A DNA stretch of 61,617 nucleotides, counting the filler, from Collodictyon triciliatum (taxonomy: Eukaryota), in NCBI GenBank assembly GCA_043381765.1. It is 5 parts of 5 records of this genome, joined end to end, with 100 filler letters (N's around TTAATTAATTAA, not from the genome) between each part and the next. Parts side by side here need not be neighbours in the genome. Positions count along the whole stretch, not along the records: positions 1 to 13,772 come from JBHJMP010001924.1; 4 more parts are not named here. One strand, 5' to 3'. Of the stretch, positions 1-52,081 are shown piece after piece. Every line of letters begins with the position of its first letter. Within the stretch, counting starts at the first letter, position 1. The notes beneath the pieces were generated by a model, which did no database searches, had not been told where the DNA came from, and saw only the letters and a list, made by a program, of their open reading frames with translations. Made by a program: the position numbers and the translations under genes.

Positions 1-3000
1 GCTGCTACAGCGAGAGACCTTGAAGGGCTGAAGCATCCTGGGCTGAATGTCTTTTTCCATTTTGTCGGATGCACCAATCTCAGCAACTACGTGGAAAGGT
101 TAATTCTATTTCTAATTCTTTTTTTATAGATATGATAAATACTTTGTTTTGGTTTTTCTAAAAAAAATTTTTTAGTGTGTCAATTCGCTTCTGGACTTTG
201 GTCGCAAACTCTGCCAACTTTGTCGAGGAAAAGAAGCAAGAAGCTGGTATTACAGTATTGTATTTTATTTTTATCTTTTAATTTAGTTTAAATGTCGCAT
301 AATTCTTCATGCATTTGCTTTATTTTGCCGCTAGAATACGAAAAAGAGGGACTCCAGGGCTTGCTGAAAATGATTCAGGAGAAAAACAAGTAAAATTTCA
401 ATTTTTATGTATTATTTAAATTATAAAATCGAAATTAAAATACATTGAATCGAATAAAAAAAATTGATATTAAACTATGTTTTATAGGGACGAGAAGTTT
501 GTCTTCCTCATCGATGCCATCAATCAAATCCACCCATCGCAAGGAACGCCAGCTCCGCATCTGCTGACCTGGTTGCCCAAAGAAACGCCAGCTAACGTTG
601 CCATGGTTGTGTCGACCATTCATACCCATGAATCTTGCACGGTATTCATCATTTAATATTATTTTTTGAATATTTTTTTTATTCTTCCTTTCAACTTTTG
701 TGCAGGACCGAGGGATTATTTTTTGAATATGTTTGTATTCTGCATAAAAATGATTTGAGTGGAACTTTAATTAATGTATCTATCATAAGTCTGCCAAACA
801 AAGTGGACTGGAGCCGATTCCTGTCGCCAAGTTGGCCGAGAGCGAAATTAAGGATGGTGTCGAAACATTCCTCATTCGCTATGACAAGACCCTGAACGAA
901 AAGCAAGTTGGAATGATTCTGGATGACCTGGAAGATACTGGTGAGATATTTTTTAAAAAGAGTATATATTTTGATTTAAGTTTTTATAAGGAATGATTTA
1001 GTTATTATTATCTGATATTTCTTATAGGCCATCCGCTCTATCTCCGCATCATTCTGGATGAGGTCAGGGTCTTTGGCGTCTATGAGAAGCTTGACGATGA
1101 ACTGAATACTCTGCTTTCAACCAATGGTGTCATTGAGCTTTACACTCTCATTATCAAGCGCTGGCAACTGAAGTTTGACAGGAAAGGTGAGTATTGATTG
1201 TACATATTTCACAAAAAAAAAGGTAAATTATAATTGCAAATTTTATTGAATACTTTTTTTATCGTACAGTCTCCTCTTCTGATGGAAAAGAGACAATGAA
1301 GGTCGAGTATGTCTCCCTCTCGATGAAGGTTCTCTTTGTTTCCCGCATCGGCCTGAGTGAAGGTGACTTGGACAAGCACATGAAAGATGCGATTGGCACA
1401 GGATTCGAGCTTGCTGAATGGTTTGCTTACTCTTCATTTTATAGAATTGAAAGGTTTATCATTCCCTTTATGTATTATATTTAACTTATTCTTTTATTCA
1501 TTCAAATAGGAAATCCTTTTTCTTTACCCTCATCGAGTCACTTTTCGTCCGCAATGGAAGGTTGGTGTCATTTCTCAATCTTTTTGTTCGTTAATCGGTG
1601 CTTTCGGTACAATTTTATTTGGACATAAAGCTAATAATTGTTTATCATAGATACATGTACTTCCACCAGCTGCTGTTAGAGACCACCAAAAAGGTCTACT
1701 TCTCCGAAAAGAAAGAGATGGAAAAAACGCACGAAAAATACGGAAAATGGCTCTTTGGCCAGTATTCTGAGGCTGCTGACGTGGATGAGGAGCTTGCTGC
1801 TGAGATATGCTACCAGCTTCTGAAGGGAAATTCGTTTGACTTGCTTGTCGAATACATGAAGCAAAAACATGTAATTTCTTAATTTTTATTTTTAATCGAT
1901 TATTCTATACATAATAAAACGACATTCACTGGTTAATTTTTAATATTTTAAGGTTATCAGCATTATGCTTGGTGGTCGCTATCGCTACGAGTTCTTTACA
2001 TGCTGGAGAGCAATCAACGCAAGCGGAGCGGCAAACTACAAAGAAGCCTATGGAAGCTTGGCGAAGGTAATTTATTATTTAATTTTAATTTTTTGAAAGT
2101 AACTACTAACAAATTTAATTATCAATCATGATTTATCTATTAATTATTTTTATAATTATTTGTTGTTTTTCAGTCTTTGGATAATGTGGGAGACCTGCTG
2201 GTTGGATTTTTCTTAGAGTCTTTTGAAAACTCGTTCTTGTTGTCTGTTCTGAATGTGCGTCTTGGAAAGCATCAGACAGAAGGCATGCAATTTATTATTG
2301 TCATTTTTGATGAATTTAAGTCATCAATATGAGTTATATATGGAGACATTTAATAATCTATCAATTTACAGATGCAAAGTCTGCTGATTACCTAAATCTT
2401 GGCCGTGTCTACAAGAACCTCCAAAAGTAAAAAAAACAAAAAATAAAATAATTATAAATAGGACATGAGATGATGATTAAAATGCAAGCTTTCTAAAATA
2501 AAAATCAATTAAACAGCTGGGCTGAGTCCATGGTCTACTATAAGAGATGTCTCGATTCAATTGAGAAAAATACAGATAATACCTTGCGTATTGCCACCAT
2601 TCATGAAGAGATGGGTATTATCTACCAGCAACAGGACAAGTAAGGCTCTCTTCATCGTAAATTAAATTATGAATAATGTTTCAAAAAGGAATTATTCTGA
2701 TTTTGCTTATTTAACAGGATTGATGAAGCTCTTGATGAATTTAAGAAATCACTGGACTTTAGAGTCGAACAACTGGGTGAGAATGACTTGCAAGTGGCCC
2801 AATCACATGACCGCTTCGGAGACATCTATTTGAAGCAGTCAAAGTAAAATTTAATCATTTATATTCGTTAACATTCTGCTTTTATTTTGTAAATATGTGC
2901 ATGCTGATCAATTTTTTATGATAGGAACGAGAAAGCTCTGGCTGAATACAAAAAGGCCATGGAAATCCGCCGAAAGAAAGTTGGAAATGAGCACCCTCTT

Positions 3001-6000
3001 GTCGCAACATCGTACCAGAACTATGGCCATGTCTCTCATGTTAATAAAAAGTTCGTTATTAATTATAAAATTAAATAAAACAATAATTTGAATAATTTCT
3101 CATGTTATAAGTAAAATTTCTATTTCATTAATTTTATAATTAAGATACCCGGAGGCCATCGATGACTATGAAAAAGCGAGATCGATTTTAGGAAAATATT
3201 TGGGCTGGAAGCATGCCTCTGTGGCTGTGATATTGTATTTGATTGCTGATGTCCACCTCAGCAGTGGCCAGTAAGAGTGTAAATATGTTGGAAATATATT
3301 TGTATGCAAATATATATCGGCTTACCGAAAAAATCTTTTGCAGAAACACGAAGGCGTTGTCCGATTTGAAAATTTGCCTCCGTACATATATTTCAGCACT
3401 CGGAGAAAATCACCCAAATGTCATAGTTTGCTACGAAAAAATTGGTGAAATCAACTATGAACTGAATAAGTGGGTTTTATCTGATTTAATCATTTATGTA
3501 ATTCATAATAATAATTCGAATGTCACTAGCCATTATTTTTAACTTATAGCCTAAAGGATTCTCTGGAATCTTTTACAAAAACATTGGAGATAAGAGAAAG
3601 AACTTTAGGAGAAAAACATCCTGATTATGCAAAATCCCTTGAGAATGTTGGCCGAACAAATTTTGAACTCCAAAGGTGCAATTTACTTAATATATTAAAA
3701 TTAGAATAAATTTTGATGATGTAGGGGAAGACCAATCATTGATCACTTATTTGAATGGATATAGATTTGATCAAGTTTCAGAGTATTTAGATAAAGCATC
3801 GATCATCAGAAAAGTATCAAAAACAGTATTATCTTTAACAGATAATTATCAAATTGATAAAATAATTGAATTGATGAAGGACAAGAAAGAGCATGAAGCC
3901 GTCATTCAGCTTTACAAAAGAGCTGCTGTTGGACATGGTGAAAAGTCATCCTATGAAAATTGGGACTGCTGGGTGGCTTGTGAGAATGTACACCAATACT
4001 GCAAAGAGAACAAGCTACATGAAAGTGGCGTGGCATTCTGGGCTGAGATGAGAGACAGATTCGCTGATAAACTGGGATGGATTCACCCCAGAACATTAAA
4101 TTCATGCGAATACTTGTCCGTTCATTCAAAGGAAATCGGAATCAACAAAGAACCTGTCGAGTTTACAAGGGTCAAGGAATTCATCTGTGAAACTCTTGAT
4201 GATGCAAAACTAGATGAGGAATGGAATCGTGAGCAAATTATCGCATCATTATTCAGAATTGTTTACATGTCGAAGACTGATGAAAGCAAATCAAAGGCTG
4301 CATCTGATGCAATCACACTTTTGAATTTCATGAATTTTTCGTTTGGTGGAATGGATTTATCAAACATCAAAATTCCACATGCAAATCTCAGTAACTCAAT
4401 CCTTGATGGTGCAAACTTCACTGGTGCCAACTTGGATGGTGTGCATTTGACAAACTCGATGTTTGGCCATTGTGTTTTTGATAATGCGCATATGAATAAT
4501 GTGAAATTCGGAATTCCTCATGATAAACTAGAAGGTCATACAGTTGATGTCAGGAGTGTTTGCAGTATTCAAGGACCGAATGGTGAATATTGGCTGGCTT
4601 CTGGAAGCGAAGATAAAACAATACGTATTTGGGATGTAGCCACAGGAAACCAAATCAAAATATTAGAAGGTCATACAAGTGCTGTCATCAGCGTTTGTAA
4701 TATTCAAGGACCGAATGGTGAAAATTGGCTGGCTTCTGGAAGTGATGACAACACAATACGCATTTGGGATGTATCCACAGGAAATCAAATCAACAAGTTA
4801 GAAGGTCATAGAAGTGATGTCAATAGTGTTTGCAGTATTCAAGGACCGAATGGTGAAAATTGGTTGGCTTCTGGAAGTGATGACAAAACAATACGCATTT
4901 GGGATGTATCCACGAGAAATCAAATCAACAAGTTAGAAGGTCATAGAAGTGATGTCAATAGTGTTTGCAGTATTCAAGGACCGAATGGTGAAAATTGGTT
5001 GGCTTCTGGGAGTAAAGATAAAACAATACGCATTTGGGATGTAGCCACAGGAAACCAAATCAAAACATTAGAAGGTCATACAGACTATGTCATTAGTGTT
5101 TGCAGTATTCAAGGACCGAACGGTGAAAATTGGTTGGCTTCTGGAAGCAGTGATAGGAGATTACGTATTTGGGATATATCCACAGGAAGCCATATCAAAA
5201 CATTAGAAGGACATACAGATACTGTTATGAGTGTTTGCAGTATTCTAGGACCGAATGGTGAAAATTGGTTGGCTTCTGGGAGTAAAGATAAAACAATACG
5301 TATTTGGGATGTATCCACAAGAAACCAAATCAAAATATTAAAAGGACATAGAAATACTGTCAATAGTGTTTGCAATATTCAAGGGCCGAATGGTGAAAAG
5401 TGGTTGGCTTCTGGAAGCAGTGATACAACAATGCGTATTTGGAGCTTTCCCTCCGAAGAGCATACTAGAAAATATAAATTATCCACTCTCATCTGTAACA
5501 GCATTTGCAATATTCAAGGACCGAACGGTGAAATATGGTTGGCTTCTGGAAGTGAAGATAACTCGATAATTATCTGGGATGTGACCACAAGTAATCAAGT
5601 AAAAAAATTGGAAAGAAATACGTGTAGGATAAACTCTATTTTTAGCATGCAAGGTCAAGATAGAGGATATTGGCTGGTCACTGGAGGTGATGATAATTAC
5701 ATACGTATTTGGGATGTAGGCAAAAGAAAAGAAATCAAAACCTTTCAAGGTCATACAAAGAAAGTCAACAGTGTTTGTAATATTCAAGGACCGAATGGTG
5801 AAAATTGGCTGGCTTCTGGAAGTAATGATAAAACAATACGTATTTGGGATGTAGCCACAGGAAATCAAATCAAAACTTTAGAAAACCATACAGATTGGAT
5901 TAGCAGTGTTTGCAGCATTCAACGACCGAATGGTGAAAATTGGTTGGCTTCTGGAAGTTTTGATAAAACAATACGCATCTGGGATGTGGCCACAGGAAAC

Positions 6001-9000
6001 CAAATCAAAACATTAGAAGGTCATACTGAGACTGTCACAAGTGTATGCAGTATTCAAGGACCGAATGGTGAAAGCTGGTTGGCTTCTGGAAGTGATGATA
6101 AAACAATACGTATTTGGGATGTAGCCACAGGAAACCAAATCAACAAGTTAGAAGGTCATACTGATGATGTCATGAGTGTTTGCAGTATTCAAGGACCGAA
6201 TGGTGAGAACTGGTTGGCTTCTGGAAGTGATGATAAAACAATACGTGTTTGGGATGTAGACACAGGAAACCAAATCAACAAGTTTGAAGGTCATACTGAT
6301 GATGTTACTAGTGTATGCAGTATTCAAGGACCGAATGGTGAGAACTGGTTGGCTTCTGGAAGTCTTGATAATACTATTCGTGTTTGGTATTCACTTGAAC
6401 TAATCCAAATTAAAACTGTTAATGTAATTGAATATAATTTTAAGACTTGGTGCAGAATTCGAGGACCGAATGGTGAAAATTGGCTGGCTTCTGGAAGTGA
6501 TGATAAAACAATACGTATTTGGGATATAACCACAAGAAGCCAAATCAAAATATTAGAAGGTCATACAGAATCTGTAAACAGTATTTGCAGTCTTCAAGGG
6601 CCGAATGGTGAAAATTGGTTGGCTTCTGGGAGTGTAGATAAATCAATACGAATTTGGAGTATAACCTCAGGAAATCAAATCAAAACATTAGAAGGTCATA
6701 TAGATGACGTGACCAGTTTATGCGAAGTCAAAGGGCCGAATGGCAACAATTGGTTGGCTTCTGGGGGCAATGATAGAACAATATATATTTGGGATTTGAG
6801 TACCAGTGCTGTGACTAAAATACCAAAGGCTCATTTAAGTGGATTGAAAGTCTTATGCAGTTTTCAAGGACCAAGTGGTGAAAAATGGCTGGCTTCTGGA
6901 AGTGGTGATGAAATAATATGCATTTGGGACGTAGCCACAGGAAATCAAATCAAAATATTAAAAGGTCATACAAGTTATGTGAACAGCATTTGCAGTATTC
7001 AAGGACCAGATGGTGAAAATTGGCTGGCCTCTGGGAGTAATGATAAAACAATACGTGTTTGGGATGTAGCCACAGGAAACCAAATCAAAACACTAGAAGG
7101 GCATACAAACTATGTCAGAAGCGTTTGCAGTATTCAAGGACTGAATGGTGAAAAATGGTTGGCTTCCGGGAGTTATGATAAAACAATACGTATTTGGGAT
7201 GTAGCCACAGGAAACCAAATCAAAAATTTTGAAGAGCACAGGGGTCGAATATACCAAGTCAGCAGTATTCAAGGACCGAATGGTGAAAATTGGCTGGCTT
7301 CCGGGAGTTATGATAATACAATAAGAATTTTGGATTTGTTTGGTACTAGCGAGATAGCAAAGTCGCATATATCCGAAAGAAAATTCAATGAAGATGAATT
7401 AATGCCAGCAGAATACAAAAGAGAAAACATCATCTTAGATGAAAAACTGGACTACAAAACTTTGCCCACATGTAGAGTCATCAATATGCAATCTATTGAT
7501 ATCTTGGGCGGTAAAAAGACCGACGAAAGGAACATAAGTGCAAAAAACATAATAGGATTAAGTCAATTCAATAAATATACTTTAATATCAATTGGTGGTG
7601 TGACCTTCGATGAAACATTTGTCACTTATTGCGAAAGGGGCAAGTTCACAATGTTTCAGGCTCAAATGATGGCTGCATGCTACGAATACGGTTGGGGTAT
7701 TGAGGAAAACAGTGAAAAGGTCAAATACTGGAAATTCACAGCCCCTTTTAAGTTAAATTTAGATTTTAGTGAATTGAAGCAACTAGCACAACAAGGTTCG
7801 AAGGAGGTATTTAATGCGATGAAAGAAATGGCTGAAATAACAGAGGGTAAGCATTACAAATATCCTCAAATTATTTCAATAGTTGCCGAATGTTTTGAAA
7901 ATGGGTGGGGAGTAAACAAAGATGCCGATGAAGCTGCTAAATTGTTTAGATTGGTTGATAACTTCGACGGCATTGCTAGACTAACTCAAAAAGGTTCAGC
8001 TTTATCATTTAAGATTTTGAAAGAAGTGGCTGAAACTAAGGATAAAGATATGTTTAAATATCCAAATGTTATTATAAAGGTCGCTGAATGTTATGAAAAT
8101 GGATGGGGTGTTGAACAGGATACACCATTATCTCTTATCTTCAGAATTAACCATAGTGATGGTGACGAGATTTTTCAGACACTTAGAGAGATGGTACAGA
8201 CTGGGTCTGCGGATGCATTTAAGGCATTAGAAGAAATAGCAAAGTCGGAAAGACACAATAAGTATCCTCAGGTTGTCTCAATAGTTGGTGAATGTTACGA
8301 AAATGGATGGGTAATTCACAAAGATCTTAAAAAAGCAACAGAATGCTTTGGAAAAGCAGAAAAATTCGAAAAACTAAAGCAATTGGCTCAACAGGGTTCA
8401 ATAGATGCATTCGAAGTCTTAAATAAAATTTCACAGACCAAAGAAGATATCAAACACCACATTCAAACGTTAAAAAAAATTGGTGAAAGGTACAAATATC
8501 CTGCGCTATTAAAATTTATTGCTCAATGCTATGAAAACGAATGGGGTGTCAAAAATGATGCTAGAGAGTGGTGCAAATGGTTAGGAATGGCAGAAAATTT
8601 TGAAAAACTGAAGATATTGGCTCAACAGGGTTCAAAAGACGCCTTTGAAGTCTTAAATAAAATGTCAGAGATGAAAGAAAATGTATATCATAAAGAGACA
8701 AGTTTAAGAATCGGTGAAAAGAACAAATATCCTCAAGCTGTTTCGATTGTCTCTCAATGTTACGAGAATGGTTGGAGCGTTGACATTGATAATATAGTGG
8801 ATTGGTGCACACTTAACAAAAATTTTCTAAAACTGACGCAGTTAGCGCAGCAAGGTTCAAGAAAGGCATTCGTCAAATTGAAAGAATTTTCAGAAAAGAA
8901 AAGAAATGTTCTGAAACACAAGACATTTGGAGAAAAGATCGGAGAAGAGCTAGTTTATCCACAAGTCGCTGGTCTTGTGATTGAGTGCTACGAAAATGGA

Positions 9001-9513
9001 TGGGGAGTTGGAATCGAAGATGTGGTTAATTGGTACGTACATACTGAAAATTATGAAAGTTTGAAGATATTGGCCCAAAAAGGTCATGTTGAGGCATTAA
9101 ATACTTTGTTGGACTTGGCAGAGTGTAAAGAACACGTTTTGGACCGTTGGGGAAGAAAAACTGGCGAGAGGTCAAAATATCCATCGGCGATTCATATTGT
9201 CATCGAATGCTATGAGAATGGATGGAGTGTAGAAAAGTGCCTCAGAAAAGTGTGCAATTGGAGAGGAAAAGCCGAGCAATTCGATGAACTAAAGAAATTG
9301 GCTCAGCAAGGTTTAACAGAAGCATTTGATGCTATTAAGTCGTTGGCGGAAATGAAGGAAGAAATCTTTAAGCACGGTAAAAGAACTGGAGATTTCAAAG
9401 TCAAATATCCAGCAAGTATTCTCATACTCGCAGAATGCTATGAAAATGGATGGGGAACAGTAGTAGACATTGAAAAGGCTGTGGAAATAAGGAAAAAATC
9501 TCCAGCCCAATAA
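1..9513 (+). CDS. NLR/STAND-like multidomain protein (NACHT - TPR - pentapeptide - WD40 x21 - SEL1-like x9), 5' end outside window
   Basis: Manual splicing gives one open frame over about 19 exons. NACHT motifs of the NPHP3/TEP1/NWD type: VFFHFVGC (49-72), Walker B FVFLIDAINQ...LTWLPKETPANVAMVVST (488-641) and GHPLYLRIILDEVRVFGVYEKL (940/1029-). TPR exons at 2517-3675 are followed by a final exon 3765-9513, the bulk of the 1924-aa ORF, ending in TAA. Walker A lies upstream of base 1. Confidence 0.9.
674..714 (-). mobile_element. Minimal LINE 3'-end insertion in an intron of the NACHT gene
   Basis: The minus strand reads CCTGCACAAAAGTTGAAAGGAAGAAT-poly(A). Perfect 16-bp TSD ATTATTTTTTGAATAT at 658-673 and 715-730. 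Confidence 0.75.
2517..3675 (+). other. Six TPR-encoding exons, one repeat per exon, all phase 2-2
   Basis: Exons 2517-2639 (123 nt), 2718-2843, 2925-3050, 3145-3270, 3344-3469 and 3550-3675 (126 nt each), all with GT-AG borders. Each encodes a 41-42 aa TPR of the kinesin-light-chain/TPR_10-12 type, e.g. NEKALAEYKKAMEIRRKKVGNEHPLVATSYQNYGHVSHVNKK. Confidence 0.9.
4250..4512 (+). other. Pentapeptide-repeat domain with preceding SK..AASDAITLL helix
   Basis: LFRIVYMSKTDESKSKAASDAITLLNFMNFSFGGMDLSNIKIPHANLSNSILDGANFTGANLDGVHLTNSMFGHCVFDNAHMNNVKFG shows A(N/D)LxxA-type pentapeptide periodicity. Confidence 0.85.
4525..7340 (+). repeat. Coding tandem array of 21 WD40 repeats, 135-nt (45-aa) unit
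   Basis: GAAGGTCATA recurs at 4531, 4666, 4801, 4936 (135-nt spacing). Consensus TLEGHTxxVxSVCSIQGPNGENWLASGSxDKTIRIWDVATGNQIK; 21 copies counted in the translation. Confidence 0.95.
7660..9500 (+). repeat. Nine expanded SEL1-like coding repeats
   Basis: Nine C(Y/F)ExGWxV-type motifs; from the second onward each is preceded by LAQQGS..AF..L and (K)YP, with variable-length spacers. Confidence 0.75.
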
Positions 9514-9978: not shown

Positions 9979-10985
9979 TTTTATTATTCTTTCAATTTTT
10001 TTTGCAGGATAGTGGAGATGTTGGCTTTGGTTCGCTAGCCATTGTTTGCATGGACGCTTCTTGGTGGCCGGGTGGCGGAGAAGTAGTCGGTAATCAGGAA
10101 CTACATCCTGCACTTTGGCCTGTAGCCTGGTCTTGTGCTTGCATGAGAGATACAAGGCGAGGTTTAATATCCTTCTCAGCCTCTTTCCACATGTATCTCT
10201 CACAGGGTCTGAGTAGTAGAGAACGTGCTGGTGGCGAAGGGAGCTATTGAGACAAGAGATTTGTATGATGTCATCCAGCCTGTTATCAGGAATGGGTGGC
10301 TGGTGCTTGAGTCTTGCTTTGCGTGAGTATATGCGCGCTATCCACATAGTCCATAGCAAATGGCCTCACGTCACTGCCCAGAATGTTTTTGCATCTGGAC
10401 GCAGCTGTTGCAGAGGCCCAAATATCGCCTGGATTGAGCCAACAGCCGCAGCCGTCTTGAGAGTCAGTCGAAGAATCTCTGGCTGTTTCGCGCAGGTTTT
10501 GAGCGAAGAGACATTGCACAAATGTGTGCTCAATGGATTCATCACCGTTGCTGCAAAGCGTGCATTGTTGGGAGACTTTGCCAGCTTATGCCGCGCGTGC
10601 GCCTATCCACAGCTCCCTATTGGTGATATTAAGCATTAGAGAGCGGTGATTTGGAAGGACTTGCGGGGTTCGTGCTTGTCTCCAGCTCGCGGTGACCGGG
10701 TGTGTGGGTGATGCCTAGTGTTTCTCCTCATCGTTGATGTTTTGACTTTTTGTAGGGTATCGGCGGCGATATTTTGTATCGAAAGAATTTGGAGTAGGCA
10801 TAGCCATCGAGAACTGCATAGACTGCGCATCGTTAGACGAGCGTTCGTTCTTGAGGCGGAAAAAGAATGGCGACGGGATGTCGTATGAGATTGGTCTGCG
10901 TGAGCGCCATTTTCCTTCGTTATTCAGGACGGCTGTGGTTGGCTGTGCATCTTGTGTGCGGAATGCGGTGGAGCCTGGCGTTGTG
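9979..10985 (-). mobile_element. Degenerate 3' portion of an L1/Tx1-type non-LTR retrotransposon (ORF2 C-terminus plus tail)
   Basis: GC-richer block. The minus strand encodes CTLCSNGDESIEHTFVQCLFA (10500-10564; CCHC zf-RVT motif) and, in a shifted frame, HLLWTMWIAR, with in-frame stops. It ends in ...CCTGCAAAAAAAATTGAAAGAATAATAAAAT, which matches dispersed short copies that have TSDs. The 5' boundary is approximate. Confidence 0.75.
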
Positions 10986-11426: not shown

Positions 11427-13436
11427 ATGAATAAAAGAAAACGTCTTCAGTCTGATAATTTAAAGTCTGTAAAACAAGACTATCGAAATGTAAAAACATA
11501 TCTAAGGCCGATTGTAAAGAATGCGGATGACTATGACAAAAATCAACGATACGGCTTTATTGTGTCATAACTTGGTTACCGACACTTATCTATTTGCAAG
11601 ATGTTACATATTGAAATCACAACCACTCCCAGCAACCGATGGAAAGTTTTTTTTGTACGCTTTAAAGGCAGTCATAATAGTTTCACAAGATAGACCCACA
11701 CGTTTAAAAAAAACCAGATATGAGAGACGACAAGATGACTTTTTATCCCAATGATTTTCGATTCCTTTTGTCCCGAGAAGAACGCTTTCTGTTCGTCGGA
11801 CTGTCTCATGTATTACCATACTTGGCGAGCCAAATGTTAGCAGCTTATCGTAATAACATCACGGAACATTTTGTAAAGAGGTTACTGCGCTTTATAAATC
11901 AATCAGTCACTAAACATGTGAATATTACGGAAGCTATTCAAAAGCCAGAGCTACGAAAGTTAAAAAAAGCCGTCTTCATGAATCTCGACATGCTGGAACA
12001 ATAAATGATGAGCTAAAACGCATTTGCATCATATCATCTCAGCGATATTGTAAATGGTATCGAATATGACTCAAAGTCAATCCAAATAAGTACATTCCAT
12101 GTCTGATTCGCATGAATAGCATTTTGGAGGACATTGAACCAAACAGTTTCAACCAATCCCTATAAAAACGAACAATATACCATCATGTCATATTACTCTA
12201 GATACTGCATGTTTGATAGATATATTAGTATCGCCTGGAAAACAATTATTACTGAAGAATATATCAGGATGCAAAGAGACCCTATGGGATAAGTTCTTTG
12301 AAATGAAGAAGAGGGTCTTTCATCAAAGATACTACAATTTAATATACATGATACAAGCAGACGGCTTGGTGGTGTCTTTATTGTTTGAAAAGAAAGGCAT
12401 TTCAAATTCAAGGTCCTATTTATAATTAAAAATCCAAGAACATGTTTTATATGAACTTTCCGAATAGCAGTTATCTTTATTAGCGACAAAAAAAAATAAT
12501 AGTTTGAGTGTACGCAGGCAAGATTAATTTGATTTACATGGTGGATGAGACAGGTACGAAATTACGTTACACGGCACACCAAACAAGACATGATAGCAAA
12601 TCTCTTAAAAATCACAAAATACTCTTGTGAGAAAAAAAGAAAAGTACGATGCTTAAGGGATATACATGGCAACAGGTTTACAGAGTGTTGTTTCTTTTGG
12701 TCACATGACTTTTGAAGAGAATCAGCGGTTTGGGACATCAAGAGTATCTTTAATCGATTTAGAGACAGAACTAAGTAAACAAAATTCATGCACGGTCGAT
12801 TATGAAAAATTCGAAAATATGTATCTATATATATGAAATAAAGATACCAGATAGAATTTTCCAGATTTTACGAAGCAAGCAACTTTTCGAAAGATGATAT
12901 GGAGTCTGTATGTTAATACAAAAAGAAGTGAAGTATTGTTTATGGAACGTATCGAAAAGACATTTGGCAAGGATGTTGTACTGGCGTATGGAGACTGGAG
13001 CAGAAAATGTCCGATGAACCTTTTCATGCCAACAATCGGAAGAGGATTACGAAAAATACTATCCAAACGTTTAGAAACAGTTATTGAAGATGAATTTAGA
13101 ACCTCCAAGATGTGTTGTAACTGCGAAAAGAAACTGGAATATATGAAACTGAAAGGAAATTAAAAAAAAGTTGCATATATATGTTTCATATGTAAAGAAT
13201 GCAATCGCTTAGAAAACAAACAAAAAATCGTATTCTTGACAATTGACTTTAACAGCGCTAAAAATATACTCAAGAAAGTTCTTCAAATTCTTCAAAAAAA
13301 ACATACATATCTCTCTAAAGAAATCAGGCTGTTATGTCTCACCTGGCAGCCTTCACCACTACACAATCTTTGTGAAAAAAATGGTGAGACCATGGAAACT
13401 GGCGCACCAAGTTTACCAATCGAAAGATTGGTATAA
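11427..13436 (+). pseudogene. Fanzor1-type (TnpB/Cas12-related) RNA-guided endonuclease pseudogene
   Basis: Frameshifted fragments in family order: MNKRKR start, KINDTALLCHNLVTDTYLFARCYIL, YLASQMLAAYRNNITEHFVKRLLRFIN, MIQADGLVVSLLF, degenerate RuvC-I IIV*VYAGK..IYMVDETG.KLRYTA (12496-), ETELSKQNSCTVDYEKF, IEKTFGKDVVLAYGDWSR..FMPTIGRGLRK, RuvC-II DEFRTSK (13089-), zinc finger CCNC...CKEC and RuvC-III TIDFNSAKNIL. No introns; several stops and frameshifts. Confidence 0.88.
12657..12749. mobile_element. 93-bp insertion with TTAA target-site duplication (possible Kolobok-type non-autonomous element)
   Basis: TTAA at 12653-12656 and 12750-12753. Removing the insert joins EKKK..Y to LIDLETELSK, as expected for Fanzor1. 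Termini are GG...CT, with weak inverted-repeat similarity and an internal GTCACATGAC near-palindrome. Confidence 0.5.
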
Positions 13437-13772: not shown

Positions 13773-13872
13773 NNNNNNNNNNNNNNNNNNNNNNNNNNNN
13801 NNNNNNNNNNNNNNNNTTAATTAATTAANNNNNNNNNNNNNNNNNNNNNNNNNNNNNNNNNNNNNNNNNNNN
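13773..13872. other. Artificial contig spacer (44N-TTAATTAATTAA-44N)
   Basis: Identical 100-bp structure occurs four times; the core gives stops in all six frames. Confidence 0.97.
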
Positions 13873-26410: not shown

Positions 26411-27485
26411 GTGAGCCGAGATAGAGAGAAACCTGAGCAGCATCTCCTGGCTGTGCCAGAAGTTCCTTTTCCTCTTCCAACAACGCCTCTCTTTCAAAGT
26501 CTGTGCAGAGAACACTCTGAAGAACCGTATCGTCATCACCATCGACCTGTTGCGCGGAGAAAGTTAGGGGGATTAAAAGAAAGAAAGAGGAAAGACCAAC
26601 CATCGCCCAATTACATCATATCATACAAAATCACATCATATCATATTCAAATCCACTGGCACACCCAAGATAAGATAAAGATGGACAAGAGAGAAAAGGG
26701 AGGGGACAAAAGCAGACCTCCTGCTCGATGTGGAGGATCTGCAGGTTCTTTGGGATGCCCGGGAACTCCTTTGCAGCGATGTGCTTGAGCAGGGTGGTCT
26801 TTCCGATGCCGTTGCGGCCGACAAGGCCATACTTGCGGCCGTAGACAAGGGTGAAGTTTGCATCGTGGAGCAGCTGCAGGCCGCCGAGGGCCATGCTGAT
26901 GTTTGTGAAGACGACGTCGCGCATGGCGCCATCGGGCTCGCGCGAGTGGACGACCATGGGGACGTTGCGCAGACGGTCGAGGATTGCGCTGCGCTCCTGC
27001 GCGTCCTCCTTCTGCTGCCGCGTCGTGCGCTTCTCAACCTTGAGCAGCCGCTTCTCGCGCTTGAGCCGCGCACGCAGCGAGCCGTCCTCCAGGTCGCCCT
27101 CGTCCGAGGCCACCACGGCCGCCCCGCCCATCGGCCCGTTGAAGTTGACCGTGGCCTTGAGCGATGCCCGCACGAGACTCTCCACCACACGCTCCTCCTC
27201 CCGCAGCACACGCGCAAGCAGCACCGGTGCCCCGAGCACATCGGCCGCCTCGCCTCTGCCCTGGCCTTTGCCCGCCTCCTTGCCTTTGTCTCGCAACCGC
27301 CCCAGCAGCTCCCGTCCAAGCTGCGCCCCGGCGGCTTCGCTCGCTACAAGCCCGCTCCCTGCAAGCAGCGCCCCGACGCCCTCTGCAATCTCCGCCTCGC
27401 TCGCGCTCTCGTCTTCTAGGAGCGAGCTCACGTACTCGGCAAGGTCGGCATCCTCGGCCACTCCTGGTAGGGCCTGCTTCAGCAG
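22866..27485 (-). CDS. ABCF3: ABC-F subfamily ATPase, ABCF3/GCN20-like; first exon lost at contig end
   Basis: Two ABC domains and no TM segments: [60 protein letters not shown] and [13 protein letters not shown]. The N-terminal extension contains [11 protein letters not shown]. Confidence 0.9.
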
Positions 27486-27634: not shown

Positions 27635-27734
27635 NNNNNNNNNNNNNNNNNNNNNNNNNNNNNNNNNNNNNNNNNNNNTTAATTAATTAANNNNNNNNNN
27701 NNNNNNNNNNNNNNNNNNNNNNNNNNNNNNNNNN
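27635..27734. other. Artificial contig spacer
   Basis: Same 100-bp structure; ABCF3 is truncated here. Confidence 0.97.
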
Positions 27735-31543: not shown

Positions 31544-33650
31544 TGCTTCAAATTAAATTCTCATGAGGATGTGGTCGCGGTTGTGGATGCCTCAAGAACA
31601 CTTTTGATCAAAAGATATGAATGCTATTATATTTAGATCATCATAATTTTCTAATTACCTTGTCTAGGAATATCTCAGAGATTACTTGCCGACATCCTTT
31701 GGTACTTTTTTGAATATATTCTGTTTCCATTAATCACAAACTGGGAATTTTGCTAACCTTTTTTTTTTATTTACATCTTTTATTTATACATCGCTTAATC
31801 ATGATTTTTTTATGTAAATTAGACTGCATTTCCATATTTTTGATGATTTGCATCATGCATGACCAACAAAAGCAAATATCTGAGGAAGGAATTGCTGCTT
31901 TGAGTAATTATCATTCAACATTAAATTCTAATTTGACGTGGTATATATATATCAATAATTTTTATCAATTTGAAATTGACTACCCATCCAATCTTATAGA
32001 TTCCTATTTCGATGGTTCAATCATTCAATTATGGACTCGATTCAAGACAACATTCGACCTAAATATGGTTGATCTTACATTATTGATATGGTTTCTTTCA
32101 TTCTTATTCTGGTAAATAACGTCTGCCGATATTTCTTTTCATTTTCAGGATAGTGTTAAAACCCTACAACCACGCTCCGTTTGGAGAAACGACACTTCTG
32201 TTCATCACGTAAATACATACAATACCATCAATCTCTATTCTTTCCATGACACTATATTGATCATCGAAACCATTAGATTGCAAAAAAATACGGAGACTTT
32301 GCAGCCTCACTCCTTTCCATCAAGGACCTGTCAAACAATGAAGGAATGCTCCTGCAGAATATCAAAATGCTTCAGAAAGAAATGGACAAGATTTTACTCA
32401 AGTACGACCCAGCACGATGAAGGCATCATTTCATTTCAAACTACATCAAACCCAAAATATCTATCTAGGATTTCAGAGTGTTTTCCAGTCAAGAAGCATC
32501 AGATCATTTTCCTGATTAATAACTATGATGGCATCCTGATGAATTTGGAGGTTTAATCTTTGCTCACCCCTACCTTTTTTACTTGTCAATTTATTGATTG
32601 ATGAATTATATAAAATCACAAGATTTTCATGTGTGTTTACTTTTAAAAATGTGGGGAAATAATTTCATTCGTAAGCACAGGAGGCTTCTGTTCCCCAACA
32701 AGACGCGAAAATGGTATCAGACCTGCTCTTACAACACACCACGGTTTGCTTTTCTNNNNNNNNNNNNNNNNNNNNNNNNNNNNNNNNNNNNNNNNNNNNN
32801 NNNNNNNNNNNNNNNNNNNNNNNNNNCACACACACACACACACACACACACACAACACACACACACACACCTCGTTATCTCATCATATTTGAAGAATCAT
32901 AAGCTAAGTATTGAACACAGAGATACGCGGAAGACGTTCTTCGAGAATTGTTTGGCCCTCTCATTGACTATGTCTTGGTGAGTGTAAAATGTAATTATAC
33001 TTTAGGCGCTGTGATATTTCACATCTCATCACTGACTAGTGTTTTATCGTTGATGATTTGTTTGATTGTTTGATTGTTTGATTGTTTGATTGTTTGATTG
33101 TTTAATTGTTTGATTGCTCTCACTAGACCACTGAGCCTCTCCCAAGTGTTCCTGCAGATAATTCATGTAAAGAGACATCTATAACCACAAACACATTTGT
33201 ATTCTCTTGTCCCTGCCGTATGTCGCATTACGCAGGGATTCGCTGATCTTAATATTACTTATGCCTCGTCAGCGCGAGCACAACAGCTTGTGAAAGACTT
33301 TGGGGCGAATTGGACGAAGGTTTTTTTTTTTTTAATATCTTGCATATCATCGTTTTTAAAATGAGGCATCTAGACTTTTCATATACATGTATAAAGACTA
33401 TGTTTTTTTATTCCAATTAACTGTATGAGTTTTACATATCTATCATACTCTCAGCCAATATGTATAATATCATGATTTAGAATATTGGAATGTTGAGCTC
33501 CGCAACACAGCAACACTTCCCCAATCCAAAAAATAGCGCAGAGGTTTTGGGGCTGATTTTTGCCCAGTTGATTTCGTATTACACCCGATTCTTCAACCTG
33601 GTTCGGAAGCTATTCCCAAAGGTTATCTTTTACTGTTGATTTCCGTTGAT

Positions 33651-38125: not shown

Positions 38126-38225
38126 NNNNNNNNNNNNNNNNNNNNNNNNNNNNNNNNNNNNNNNNNNNNTTAATTAATTAANNNNNNNNNNNNNNNNNNN
38201 NNNNNNNNNNNNNNNNNNNNNNNNN
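38126..38225. other. Artificial contig spacer
   Basis: Same structure; the RECQL4 5' half does not continue across it. Confidence 0.97.
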
Positions 38226-40230: not shown

Positions 40231-50980
<10,750 letters not shown>

Positions 50981-51981: not shown

Positions 51982-52081
51982 NNNNNNNNNNNNNNNNNNN
52001 NNNNNNNNNNNNNNNNNNNNNNNNNTTAATTAATTAANNNNNNNNNNNNNNNNNNNNNNNNNNNNNNNNNNNNNNNNNNNN
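51982..52081. other. Artificial contig spacer
   Basis: Same structure. Confidence 0.97.

Follow-up and report, generated by a model that had tools for sequence, protein, structure and literature searches.

Introduction

Good descriptions of receptors of the NOD-like receptor (NLR) kind, built on an NTPase switch of the STAND class (signal transduction ATPases with numerous domains), come from animals, plants, fungi and bacteria; free-living protists have supplied hardly any. Here we describe a gene at positions 1-9513 (+) of a 61,617-nucleotide stretch of DNA from Collodictyon triciliatum (GenBank assembly GCA_043381765.1; "the window" below means this whole stretch). With little doubt it is one real, intron-rich gene of a freshwater protist akin to Diphylleia, encoding a giant switch-type ATPase of the nephrocystin-3/TEP1 kind that carries four successive repeat arrays.

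The described systems closest to this gene share some of its parts. The available text of one preprint (bioRxiv 10.64898/2026.05.01.722283) presents DUF4062 as a TIR-like NADase with activity both in bacterial defence and in human TEP1, and places it next to NACHT in NPHP3, NWD1, NWD2 and TEP1, with many WD40 repeats following in TEP1, NWD1 and NWD2. In its NTPase region (NOD) the window gene is nearest to nephrocystin-3-like proteins, with which it shares the motifs DA.NQ, WLP and PLYL..L.ELR.FG and a TPR_12/TPR_NPHP3-type array after the NOD; identity over the NOD region is 25-27%, as obtained in a search with P0013, a transcript of the protist Diphylleia rotans. Nephrocystin-3-like proteins end after the TPRs among the matches listed, whereas the family of the window gene adds a pentapeptide part, three predicted propellers and Sel1-like repeats. 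TEP1 differs in forming a separate NOD clade (support of 98 in the Shimodaira-Hasegawa-like approximate likelihood ratio test, SH-aLRT), and P0013 is without TROVE/vWA; TEP1, NWD1 and NWD2 show no TPR family among the matches listed, and no pentapeptide or Sel1 arrays.

Fungal NLRs of the HNWD/HET-E type resemble the window gene in combining NACHT with tandem WD40 repeats in a single exon, the units being homogenised and varying at few positions (PMC2873952, PMC4986451). In the available portions of these papers, the homogenised repeats of HET-E-type proteins have four selected codons at the interaction surface and the proteins act in allorecognition (PMC2873952), highly conserved repeats are defined by >85% internal identity (PMC4986451), and each protein is given one repeat type (WD, ANK or TPR) (PMC4986451, PMC2873952). 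These fungal proteins, as portrayed there, have ∼85% internal identity compared with 62% here, and they differ in NOD lineage, N-terminal domain and organism group. APAF-1, in the available text of the preprint cited above (10.64898/2026.05.01.722283), is likewise a STAND NTPase, autoinhibited until its WD40 propellers bind a ligand. APAF-1 departs from the window gene in its NOD, which is NB-ARC and not NACHT-type, in its CARD effector and in having two propellers; TPR, pentapeptide and Sel1 repeats are missing from it. Nearest of all are D. rotans transcripts that are unannotated in EukProt (P0013/P0020, P0141, P0143, P0014 and P0012, with the TPR-only P0142); they belong to the same family and keep the same order of NOD, TPR, linker, pentapeptide, WD40, spacer and Sel1.

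Results

A single intron-rich gene

The exon model, which was derived from reading frames and splice sites and then checked by script, divides the gene into 19 exons that splice into a single open frame of 2629 codons, with a TAA stop codon at 9511-9513 and a 5′ end that lies beyond the start of the window (Table 1). The 18 introns are short (73-148 nt), follow the GT-AG rule in 17 cases and GC-AG in one (intron 11, donor 2283), and have a G+C content of 21%, compared with 39% in the coding sequence; the DNA of the window as a whole is AT-rich and eukaryotic (G+C of 30-45% per 2-kb window). The open reading frame (ORF) at 3739-9513 (+) alone runs for 1924 codons, for which the log-probability of encountering no stop is about −140 given the base composition of the window. 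The spliced model is colinear with residues 667-2569 of P0013, at 46% identity over 1913 columns. From the 5′ side, the encoded protein consists of a NACHT-type NTPase, a helical domain, six TPR exons, a TPR-like linker, a pentapeptide part, the WD40 array, a spacer and the Sel1-like array, and the motif GG.xFD..F..YCE at the end of the spacer is kept in the D. rotans homologues. The repeat content claimed in the original prediction (TPRs, a pentapeptide domain, 21 WD40 repeats and nine Sel1-like repeats) is borne out by Pfam, motif anchors and the exon model.

Table 1. Coordinates in the window of the gene and its parts, with the evidence for each.
Feature	Position	Strand	Remarks
Whole gene, portion within the window	1-9513	+	19 exons, 5′ end missing; open frame and colinearity with P0013
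Exons 1-6, NACHT-type NOD after Walker A	1-98, 176-246, 335-389, 488-641, 790-940, 1028-1186	+	60% identity to P0013 NOD
Exons 7-11, helical/winged-helix region after NOD	1270-1420, 1510-1560, 1651-1870, 1953-2066, 2174-2282	+	57% identity to P0013
Exons 12-18, TPR_12-type array	2372-2426, 2517-2639, 2718-2843, 2925-3050, 3145-3270, 3344-3469, 3550-3675	+	42% identity to P0013 TPR region
Intron 18, GT..AG, 89 nt	3676-3764	+	Phase 2 on both sides
Start of 5.7-kb exon 19: ten-helix TPR-like linker, family-specific	3765-4326	+	AlphaFold2 model, fold search
Pentapeptide-repeat beta-helix, ∼60 residues	4327-4512	+	Pfam Pentapeptide; 52% identity to P0013
21 WD40 units of 45 residues, without indels	4513-7347	+	Pfam, Tandem Repeats Finder, motif anchor
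Spacer, 96 residues	7348-7635	+	17% overall identity to P0013
Nine Sel1-like units	7636-9510	+	Pfam Sel1, unit anatomy, PDB profile search

The original prediction had joined the NTPase and all of the repeat arrays into one gene across the splice 3675/3765, and this assignment holds, the splice being in phase and the D. rotans transcripts colinear across it. Intron 18 has a canonical donor and acceptor and is entered in phase 2, as are the five preceding TPR introns; its retention would bring a stop into frame at 3707-3709. The first ATG of the downstream frame occurs only 46 codons in, within a stretch that is conserved in the homologues. P0013 aligns without a gap at the point equivalent to 3675/3765, P0014 reads through the same point, and P0012 has TPR, linker and WD40 within one ORF. 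Because these three transcripts, which share the order TPR-linker-pentapeptide-WD40, stem from different Trinity genes, assembly chimeras are unlikely.

Splicing of the upstream introns was compared with contigs from three sequencing runs (X1-X3; one is a freshwater metatranscriptome, and that the other two are RNA is a guess), which were aligned to positions 1-4600 at ≥90% likeness, with query-word shares of 0.06-0.08. The runs yielded 312, 255 and 36 contigs that matched at 90-99% identity over 4.6 kb, in many variants. These contigs depart from the window in the same places, so their source is a close relative, or else other alleles or paralogues, and not demonstrably the strain of the window. 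Contig joints bridge 10 of the 18 introns (introns 1-4 and 7-12, with intron 11 recovered as GC..AG after a permitted 2-base shift), and introns 5, 6, 13 and 14 have joints with a few extra letters. Some odd joints were also seen: 1413->1528, whose ends CT..AC are the reverse complement of GT..AG, and 1595->1733 occur in both X1 and X2 at matching depths, and in one X1 contig a joint at 4209->4304 leaves out 94 bases of exon 19. These joints may reflect splicing on the antisense strand, divergent paralogues or errors of assembly.

The NTPase belongs with nephrocystin-3-like proteins

A Walker B motif lies at the expected distance, at 498-527, where the window lines up with the corresponding motif in nephrocystin-3-like, TEP1 and NWD1 proteins. 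The motif has the form DA(I/V/L)NQ that is common to nephrocystin-3-like proteins, in which the two residues after D-A-I are N-Q and not acidic, and it is followed downstream by the motifs WLP and PLYLR..L.E.RVFG. The assignment of the window NTPase rests on homology, namely the 60% identity to the NOD of P0013, in which the P-loop (A....GKS) directly precedes the residues aligned with window position 1.

A search with residues 370-1120 of P0013, covering DUF4062 and the NOD, returned 59 proteins at E≤1e-3 among 7055 candidates. These included a Balamuthia DUF4062 protein (2.8e-51), a protein annotated as 'nephrocystin-3' (2.6e-47), many TEP1 proteins (1.1e-35 and weaker) and NWD1 (2.1e-8), together with P0013 itself and P0141, P0142 and P0143 of D. 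rotans. DUF4062 scores 42.5 bits in P0013 and 43.6 bits in P0142 (cut-off 24.7) and appears in the precomputed domain list of P0141, and P0013 carries an N-terminal calponin-homology domain as well. P0142, which consists of DUF4062, NPHP3_N and TPRs without WD40, exceeds the NPHP3_N cut-off (29.3 bits, cut-off 24.8). From these sequence comparisons, the NOD appears to be a STAND NTPase of the DUF4062-NACHT lineage that is closest to nephrocystin-3-like proteins and apart from TEP1.

A TPR superhelix continued by a TPR-like linker

Exons 13-18 each encode one TPR unit of 41-42 residues in the same register, and all are in phase 2. When these exons were scanned singly with TPR_12 (PF13424), five of the six matched (E of 5.4e-7 to 1.1e-3, profile positions 19-59) with scores of 19.6-30.1 bits, one exon attaining the cut-off of 30.1; the TPR region of P0013 scores 136.5 bits with the same family. 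One exon per repeat is therefore real, yet the exon-modular diversification of the TPRs that had been proposed finds no support here: the array aligns to the D. rotans homologues at 42% identity with no visible gap, the units are kept in number and register, and the array does not look shuffled.

The ∼190-residue linker at 3765-4326 matches no Pfam family. A search of the stretch 3766-4335 against 1.84 billion representative proteins at E≤1e-3 found eight proteins, of which three are long D. rotans sequences (1e-31 to 1e-45; all Trinity transcripts in EukProt), one is a 77-residue fragment at 70% identity and four are weak matches to TPR_12 arrays. An AlphaFold2 model of linker and pentapeptide part, built on an alignment of five homologues, has ten helices followed by a beta-helix, with a mean predicted local distance difference test score (pLDDT) of 87.4 and a predicted template-modeling score (pTM) of 0.82. 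The best PDB folds for the linker were kinesin light chain TPR domains (E 6e-4, probability 1.0), at a template-modeling (TM) score of only ∼0.3, which shows the linker to be 'TPR-like' and does not indicate a specific relationship to kinesin light chain. The helices of the model, these folds and the weak sequence matches to TPR arrays together argue that the linker continues the TPR superhelix. The region between the TPR exons and the pentapeptide part, which had been taken for a spacer of unknown nature, is thereby corrected to a further TPR-like helical stack. Three of the weak linker matches (P0016, P0018 and P0019) are protein kinases with TPR_12/TPR_10 arrays of the same kinesin-light-chain type, unrelated to the gene. 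In P0012 the linker was matched in two stretches, which suggests an internal duplication of the TPR-linker module in that transcript; its WD40 region of ∼1650 residues has long low-complexity inserts.

The pentapeptide part was identified by PF00805 (E 1.4e-10, 41 bits, cut-off 20.2) and is modelled with a strand every 5 residues and pLDDT >90 over most of its length, and pentapeptide proteins are among the fold matches of the second part of the model (E ∼1e-2). A search with linker and pentapeptide part limited to proteins of 1058-3367 residues gave 10 matches, apparently through the pentapeptide part, and no member of the family; nine have pentapeptide families without NACHT, and one (P0008, 1801 residues) combines NACHT, leucine-rich repeats and pentapeptides.

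WD40 units evolve in concert

The WD40 family (PF00400) matches exon 19 in 19 stretches (E 1.8e-179, 575 bits), and TEP1 beta-propeller models of Pfam match the array too. Tandem Repeats Finder reports 20.8 copies of period 135 at 4529-7335, with 77% matches, and a motif anchor recovers 21 of 21 units at a spacing of exactly 45 residues. The consensus decays at the boundaries between units 7 and 8 and between units 14 and 15, and again where unit 21 ends, so that the array probably forms three seven-bladed propellers (7+7+7).

Mean protein identity is 0.62 among the 21 units of the window gene, compared with 0.34 among the ∼19 units of P0013, and 0.41 between the two proteins. None of the 21 units is closest to its positional counterpart; each is nearest to another unit of the same gene, in support of the intra-exon recombination that the original prediction had proposed. 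Nucleotide identity between units averages 74% and reaches 95% only for units 3 and 4, which are 93% identical in protein. Variation is greatest at unit columns 11, 12, 14, 33 and 43 (entropies of 2.5-3.1 bits), the first three of which flank a conserved Val after Gly-His, and column 33 precedes an invariant Asp. We conclude that the WD40 units undergo concerted evolution and vary mainly at these five columns. Duplication of whole propellers was considered and rejected: mean unit identity is 0.741 at an offset of 7 units and 0.749 at 14, compared with 0.72-0.76 elsewhere, and since there is no clear peak the array was not simply built by recent copying of a seven-blade block.

A nine-fold Sel1-like array

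Nine anchors of the CYENGW type define Sel1-like units of 66-78 residues, with a last unit of 39, and Sel1 (PF08238) scores 56.2 bits (cut-off 30.7). Each unit consists of a Sel1 hairpin and an extra LAQQGS..AF helix pair, which extends 20-35 residues beyond the 36-residue Pfam model. When a profile of the nine units was compared with the PDB, the top three matches were all Sel1 repeat proteins (6ork, 1.3e-6; 6ok3, 2.8e-5; 6ur7, 6.4e-5). All clusters listed in an Atlas search of the region carry Sel1, at scores of 0.85-0.86 that make them a lead at most, and a single-sequence AlphaFold2 model was unusable (pLDDT 43.6). Nucleotide identity between the units is 0.43-0.66, they were not detected by Tandem Repeats Finder, and they are older than the WD40 units. 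There are nine terminal Sel1-like units in the window gene versus one each in P0012, P0013, P0014 and P0141; the nine-fold expansion appears special to the window gene among the relatives compared.

A multi-copy family in two CRuMs protists

The protist origin of the gene is confirmed by its best matches and by those of an ABCF3-type gene in the window, which fall in two CRuMs protists, Diphylleia rotans and Rigifila ramosa. The close relatives found for the NLR gene all belong to D. rotans, and the ABCF3-type exon (26715-27401, −) has its best matches in D. rotans (62%) and R. ramosa (50%). An animal or fungal origin, to which base composition and the Sel1 and WD40 content had seemed to point, is rejected on the strength of these matches. 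As ABCF3 is only 62% identical, D. rotans is a different species from that of the window. At least six distinct family members are present in D. rotans, with differing repeat content, including WD40 count and Sel1 count. NACHT, TPR, pentapeptide and WD40 with one terminal Sel1 unit are found whole in P0013 and P0141, and P0012, P0014 and P0143, which are incomplete transcripts, preserve portions of this domain order.

A quick maximum-likelihood tree was built from 59 rows (the 59 NOD-search hits minus P0184, a short match, plus the window); it is unrooted and several rows are on long branches. The window gene falls inside the D. rotans clade (SH-aLRT 100) as sister to P0013 and P0143 (98), with P0141 and then P0142 outside. 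The D. rotans clade joins the TPR-only nephrocystin-3-like proteins (92, a node not starred) apart from the TEP1 clade. Because P0141 falls outside the group formed by the window gene, P0013 and P0143, the family was multi-copy before the species split, on any rooting outside the clade. The most economical history that the tree suggests is that a nephrocystin-3-like ancestor with DUF4062, NACHT and TPRs gained the pentapeptide part, WD40 repeats and one Sel1 unit, and that the Sel1 unit was later expanded to nine in the window gene.

The architecture had been put forward as one not recognised from described proteins. This needs qualification, as the plan with one Sel1 unit also exists in P0013 and P0141; the nine-fold Sel1 array is found only here. 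The gene is not a common or conserved single-copy protein, since the linker search gave four relatives among 1.84 billion representatives. Mixed repeat types occur elsewhere too: the DUF4062 proteins P0187 and P0197 have ankyrin and TPR among the families listed. Literature searches found nothing on NLR-like proteins of this kind in Diphyllatea, the D. rotans transcripts included, and no description of an architecture of NACHT, TPR, WD40 and Sel1, as judged from the papers' listings. Known parts and a known plan are thus met here in a new combination and a new lineage.

Other features of the window

Just downstream of the NLR gene, in a G+C-rich kilobase (51%), 10289-10585 (−) matches zf-RVT (reverse transcriptase zinc-binding; E 6.2e-6, 27.2 bits, cut-off 27.5) and is probably a retroelement remnant. 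The ORF at 12855-13160 (+), with a further open frame at 13164-13433 beside it, contains motifs (...DW... and ...E.RTSK.C..C...) that recall TnpB/Fanzor-type RNA-guided nucleases. The ORF at 12855-13160 has no Pfam match, and an Atlas search gave unnamed eukaryotic clusters at 0.96-0.97, one of them with Cas12f1-like_TNB in 16% of its members, which is a lead only. A 631-codon open frame at 40565-42457 (−) with 43-45% G+C matches no Pfam family at E≤0.01. Third-position G+C is 0.79 in the ABCF3-type exon versus 0.36 in the NLR gene overall (0.56 in the NOD exons, falling toward the 3′ arrays), so that codon usage differs strongly between the housekeeping gene and the receptor gene. Pairs of 44-base N blocks with 12 bases between them, at 13773-13872, 27635-27734, 38126-38225 and 51982-52081, flank microsatellite-rich DNA, and single N runs occupy 32756-32826 and 43876-44334. 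The NLR gene and the ABCF3 exon are on opposite sides of paired N blocks.

Discussion

The protein encoded by this gene probably forms a composite scaffold, with a long TPR superhelix, a short pentapeptide beta-helix, three propellers and a nine-unit Sel1-like solenoid. APAF-1 and other STAND proteins suggest how it may work: the NTPase would be held shut by the repeat half and set free once the variable top faces of the propellers, and perhaps also the Sel1 solenoid, engage a ligand. Nucleotide exchange would then drive oligomerisation, which would gather the N-terminal domains. Should the N-terminal domain be DUF4062, as in the D. rotans relatives, the output may be breakdown of NAD+ leading to cell death, arrest or signalling, because that domain is reported as a TIR-like NADase. 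Taken jointly, the identity of the gene and a sensor or immune mechanism seem to us rather probable; the mechanism itself, with its autoinhibition, ligand sensing, oligomerisation and immune role, is drawn from these analogies and falls a little short of probable.

A number of observations weigh against reading this stretch as one gene for an immune sensor on a NACHT switch with diversifying propellers. To our knowledge, none of nephrocystin-3, TEP1 and NWD1 is an established pathogen sensor, and no paralogue was found elsewhere within the 61-kb window. The window begins just after Walker A, so that this motif and the N-terminal effector lie upstream of it. The NACHT NTPase of the original prediction is present by homology, but the exons of the window miss the Pfam cut-off: when eight non-TPR exons of the NOD and helical region were scanned singly, NACHT (PF05729) gave one weak match (exon 4, E 0.14, 12.4 bits, cut-off 26.7) and the other seven exons matched no Pfam family. 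Even P0013 stays below both cut-offs (25.3 bits versus 26.7 for NACHT; 23.0 versus 24.8 for NPHP3_N, PF24883). Introns 15-18 are without a listed contig joint, with zero cover over 3081-3850 in X1 and X2 and thin cover at 3543-3696 in X3, and the reads therefore do not bear on the junction 3675/3765.

The evidence from the WD40 units speaks for sensor-like evolution and has limits of its own. Among 15 core units, the ratio of nonsynonymous to synonymous rates (dN/dS) is 2.17 at the five variable columns versus 0.25 elsewhere, with dS equal at 0.42, and the value above 1 is biased upward because the columns were picked after viewing the data. That these columns lie on the propeller top face, at WD40 hot spots, is our assumption, and ordinary propeller blades also differ at surface positions. 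Internal conservation of the array (62% in protein, 74% in nucleotides, dS 0.42) falls short of the >85% by which fungal repeats of this kind are defined in the available text of PMC4986451.

One alternative explanation is that the gene encodes a housekeeping scaffold, that is, a lineage-specific elaboration of nephrocystin-3 (ciliary) or of a TEP1/NWD1-type protein, whose repeats would engage a fixed set of partners within the flagellate. The grouping of the NOD with nephrocystin-3-like proteins is consistent with this idea, as are the TPR, linker and pentapeptide parts kept in order and register between two species, the calponin-homology domain of P0013, which suggests contact with the cytoskeleton, and a homogenisation of the WD40 units that is moderate and not extreme. 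A scaffold for fixed partners, however, sits poorly with a family that was multi-copy before the species split and has at least six D. rotans members of varied repeat content, with WD40 units that evolve in concert while varying at five columns, with the growth of Sel1 from one unit to nine in the window gene only, and with many near-identical variant transcripts. We therefore regard the housekeeping explanation as unlikely.

A second alternative keeps the same switch and changes the class of ligand: the protein would be an APAF-1-like sensor of endogenous danger or stress, or would recognise conspecific non-self (allorecognition), and would not sense pathogens. APAF-1 offers a parallel in architecture, with an NTPase and propellers that bind an internal ligand, and fungal HET-E-type WD40 NLRs, which have the same pattern of repeat evolution, act in allorecognition according to the available text of PMC2873952. 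Neither diversified blade surfaces nor a large number of paralogues would be favoured by a ligand that is endogenous and invariant, and this explanation is decidedly improbable. Least credible, to the point of near exclusion, is that a NACHT-TPR gene ending near 3709 and a separate, adjacent pentapeptide-WD40-Sel1 gene were wrongly joined in the original prediction, for although no listed contig joint crosses 3675/3765 and retention of intron 18 gives a stop, the canonical phase-2 splice, the late ATG within conserved sequence and the independent D. rotans transcripts all argue for one gene.

Returning to the reading of the gene as a receptor, we tentatively suggest that diphyllateans may run a family of innate-immune or non-self receptors on a nephrocystin-3-type STAND protein with a TIR-like NADase, which secondarily captured pentapeptide, propeller and Sel1 modules and whose blades diversify by intragenic recombination and selection on ligand-contact positions. 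If so, the hypervariable-repeat strategy known from fungal HET-E-type NLRs would have been invented independently in CRuMs, a deep-branching supergroup of eukaryotes, and the stacking of arrays would allow a single receptor to detect more than one ligand or to guard more than one target. A CRuMs flagellate holds a multi-copy family on the NTPase lineage of human NPHP3, TEP1 and NWD1, which combines the TPR arm of NPHP3 with propellers of the WD40 sort seen in TEP1/NWD1, plus two further types of repeat. If the propellers joined a TPR-only ancestor, as the tree suggests, the family would be a natural experiment in the capture and expansion of sensor modules, and it may serve as a tractable system outside the animals for finding out what DUF4062-NACHT proteins sense.

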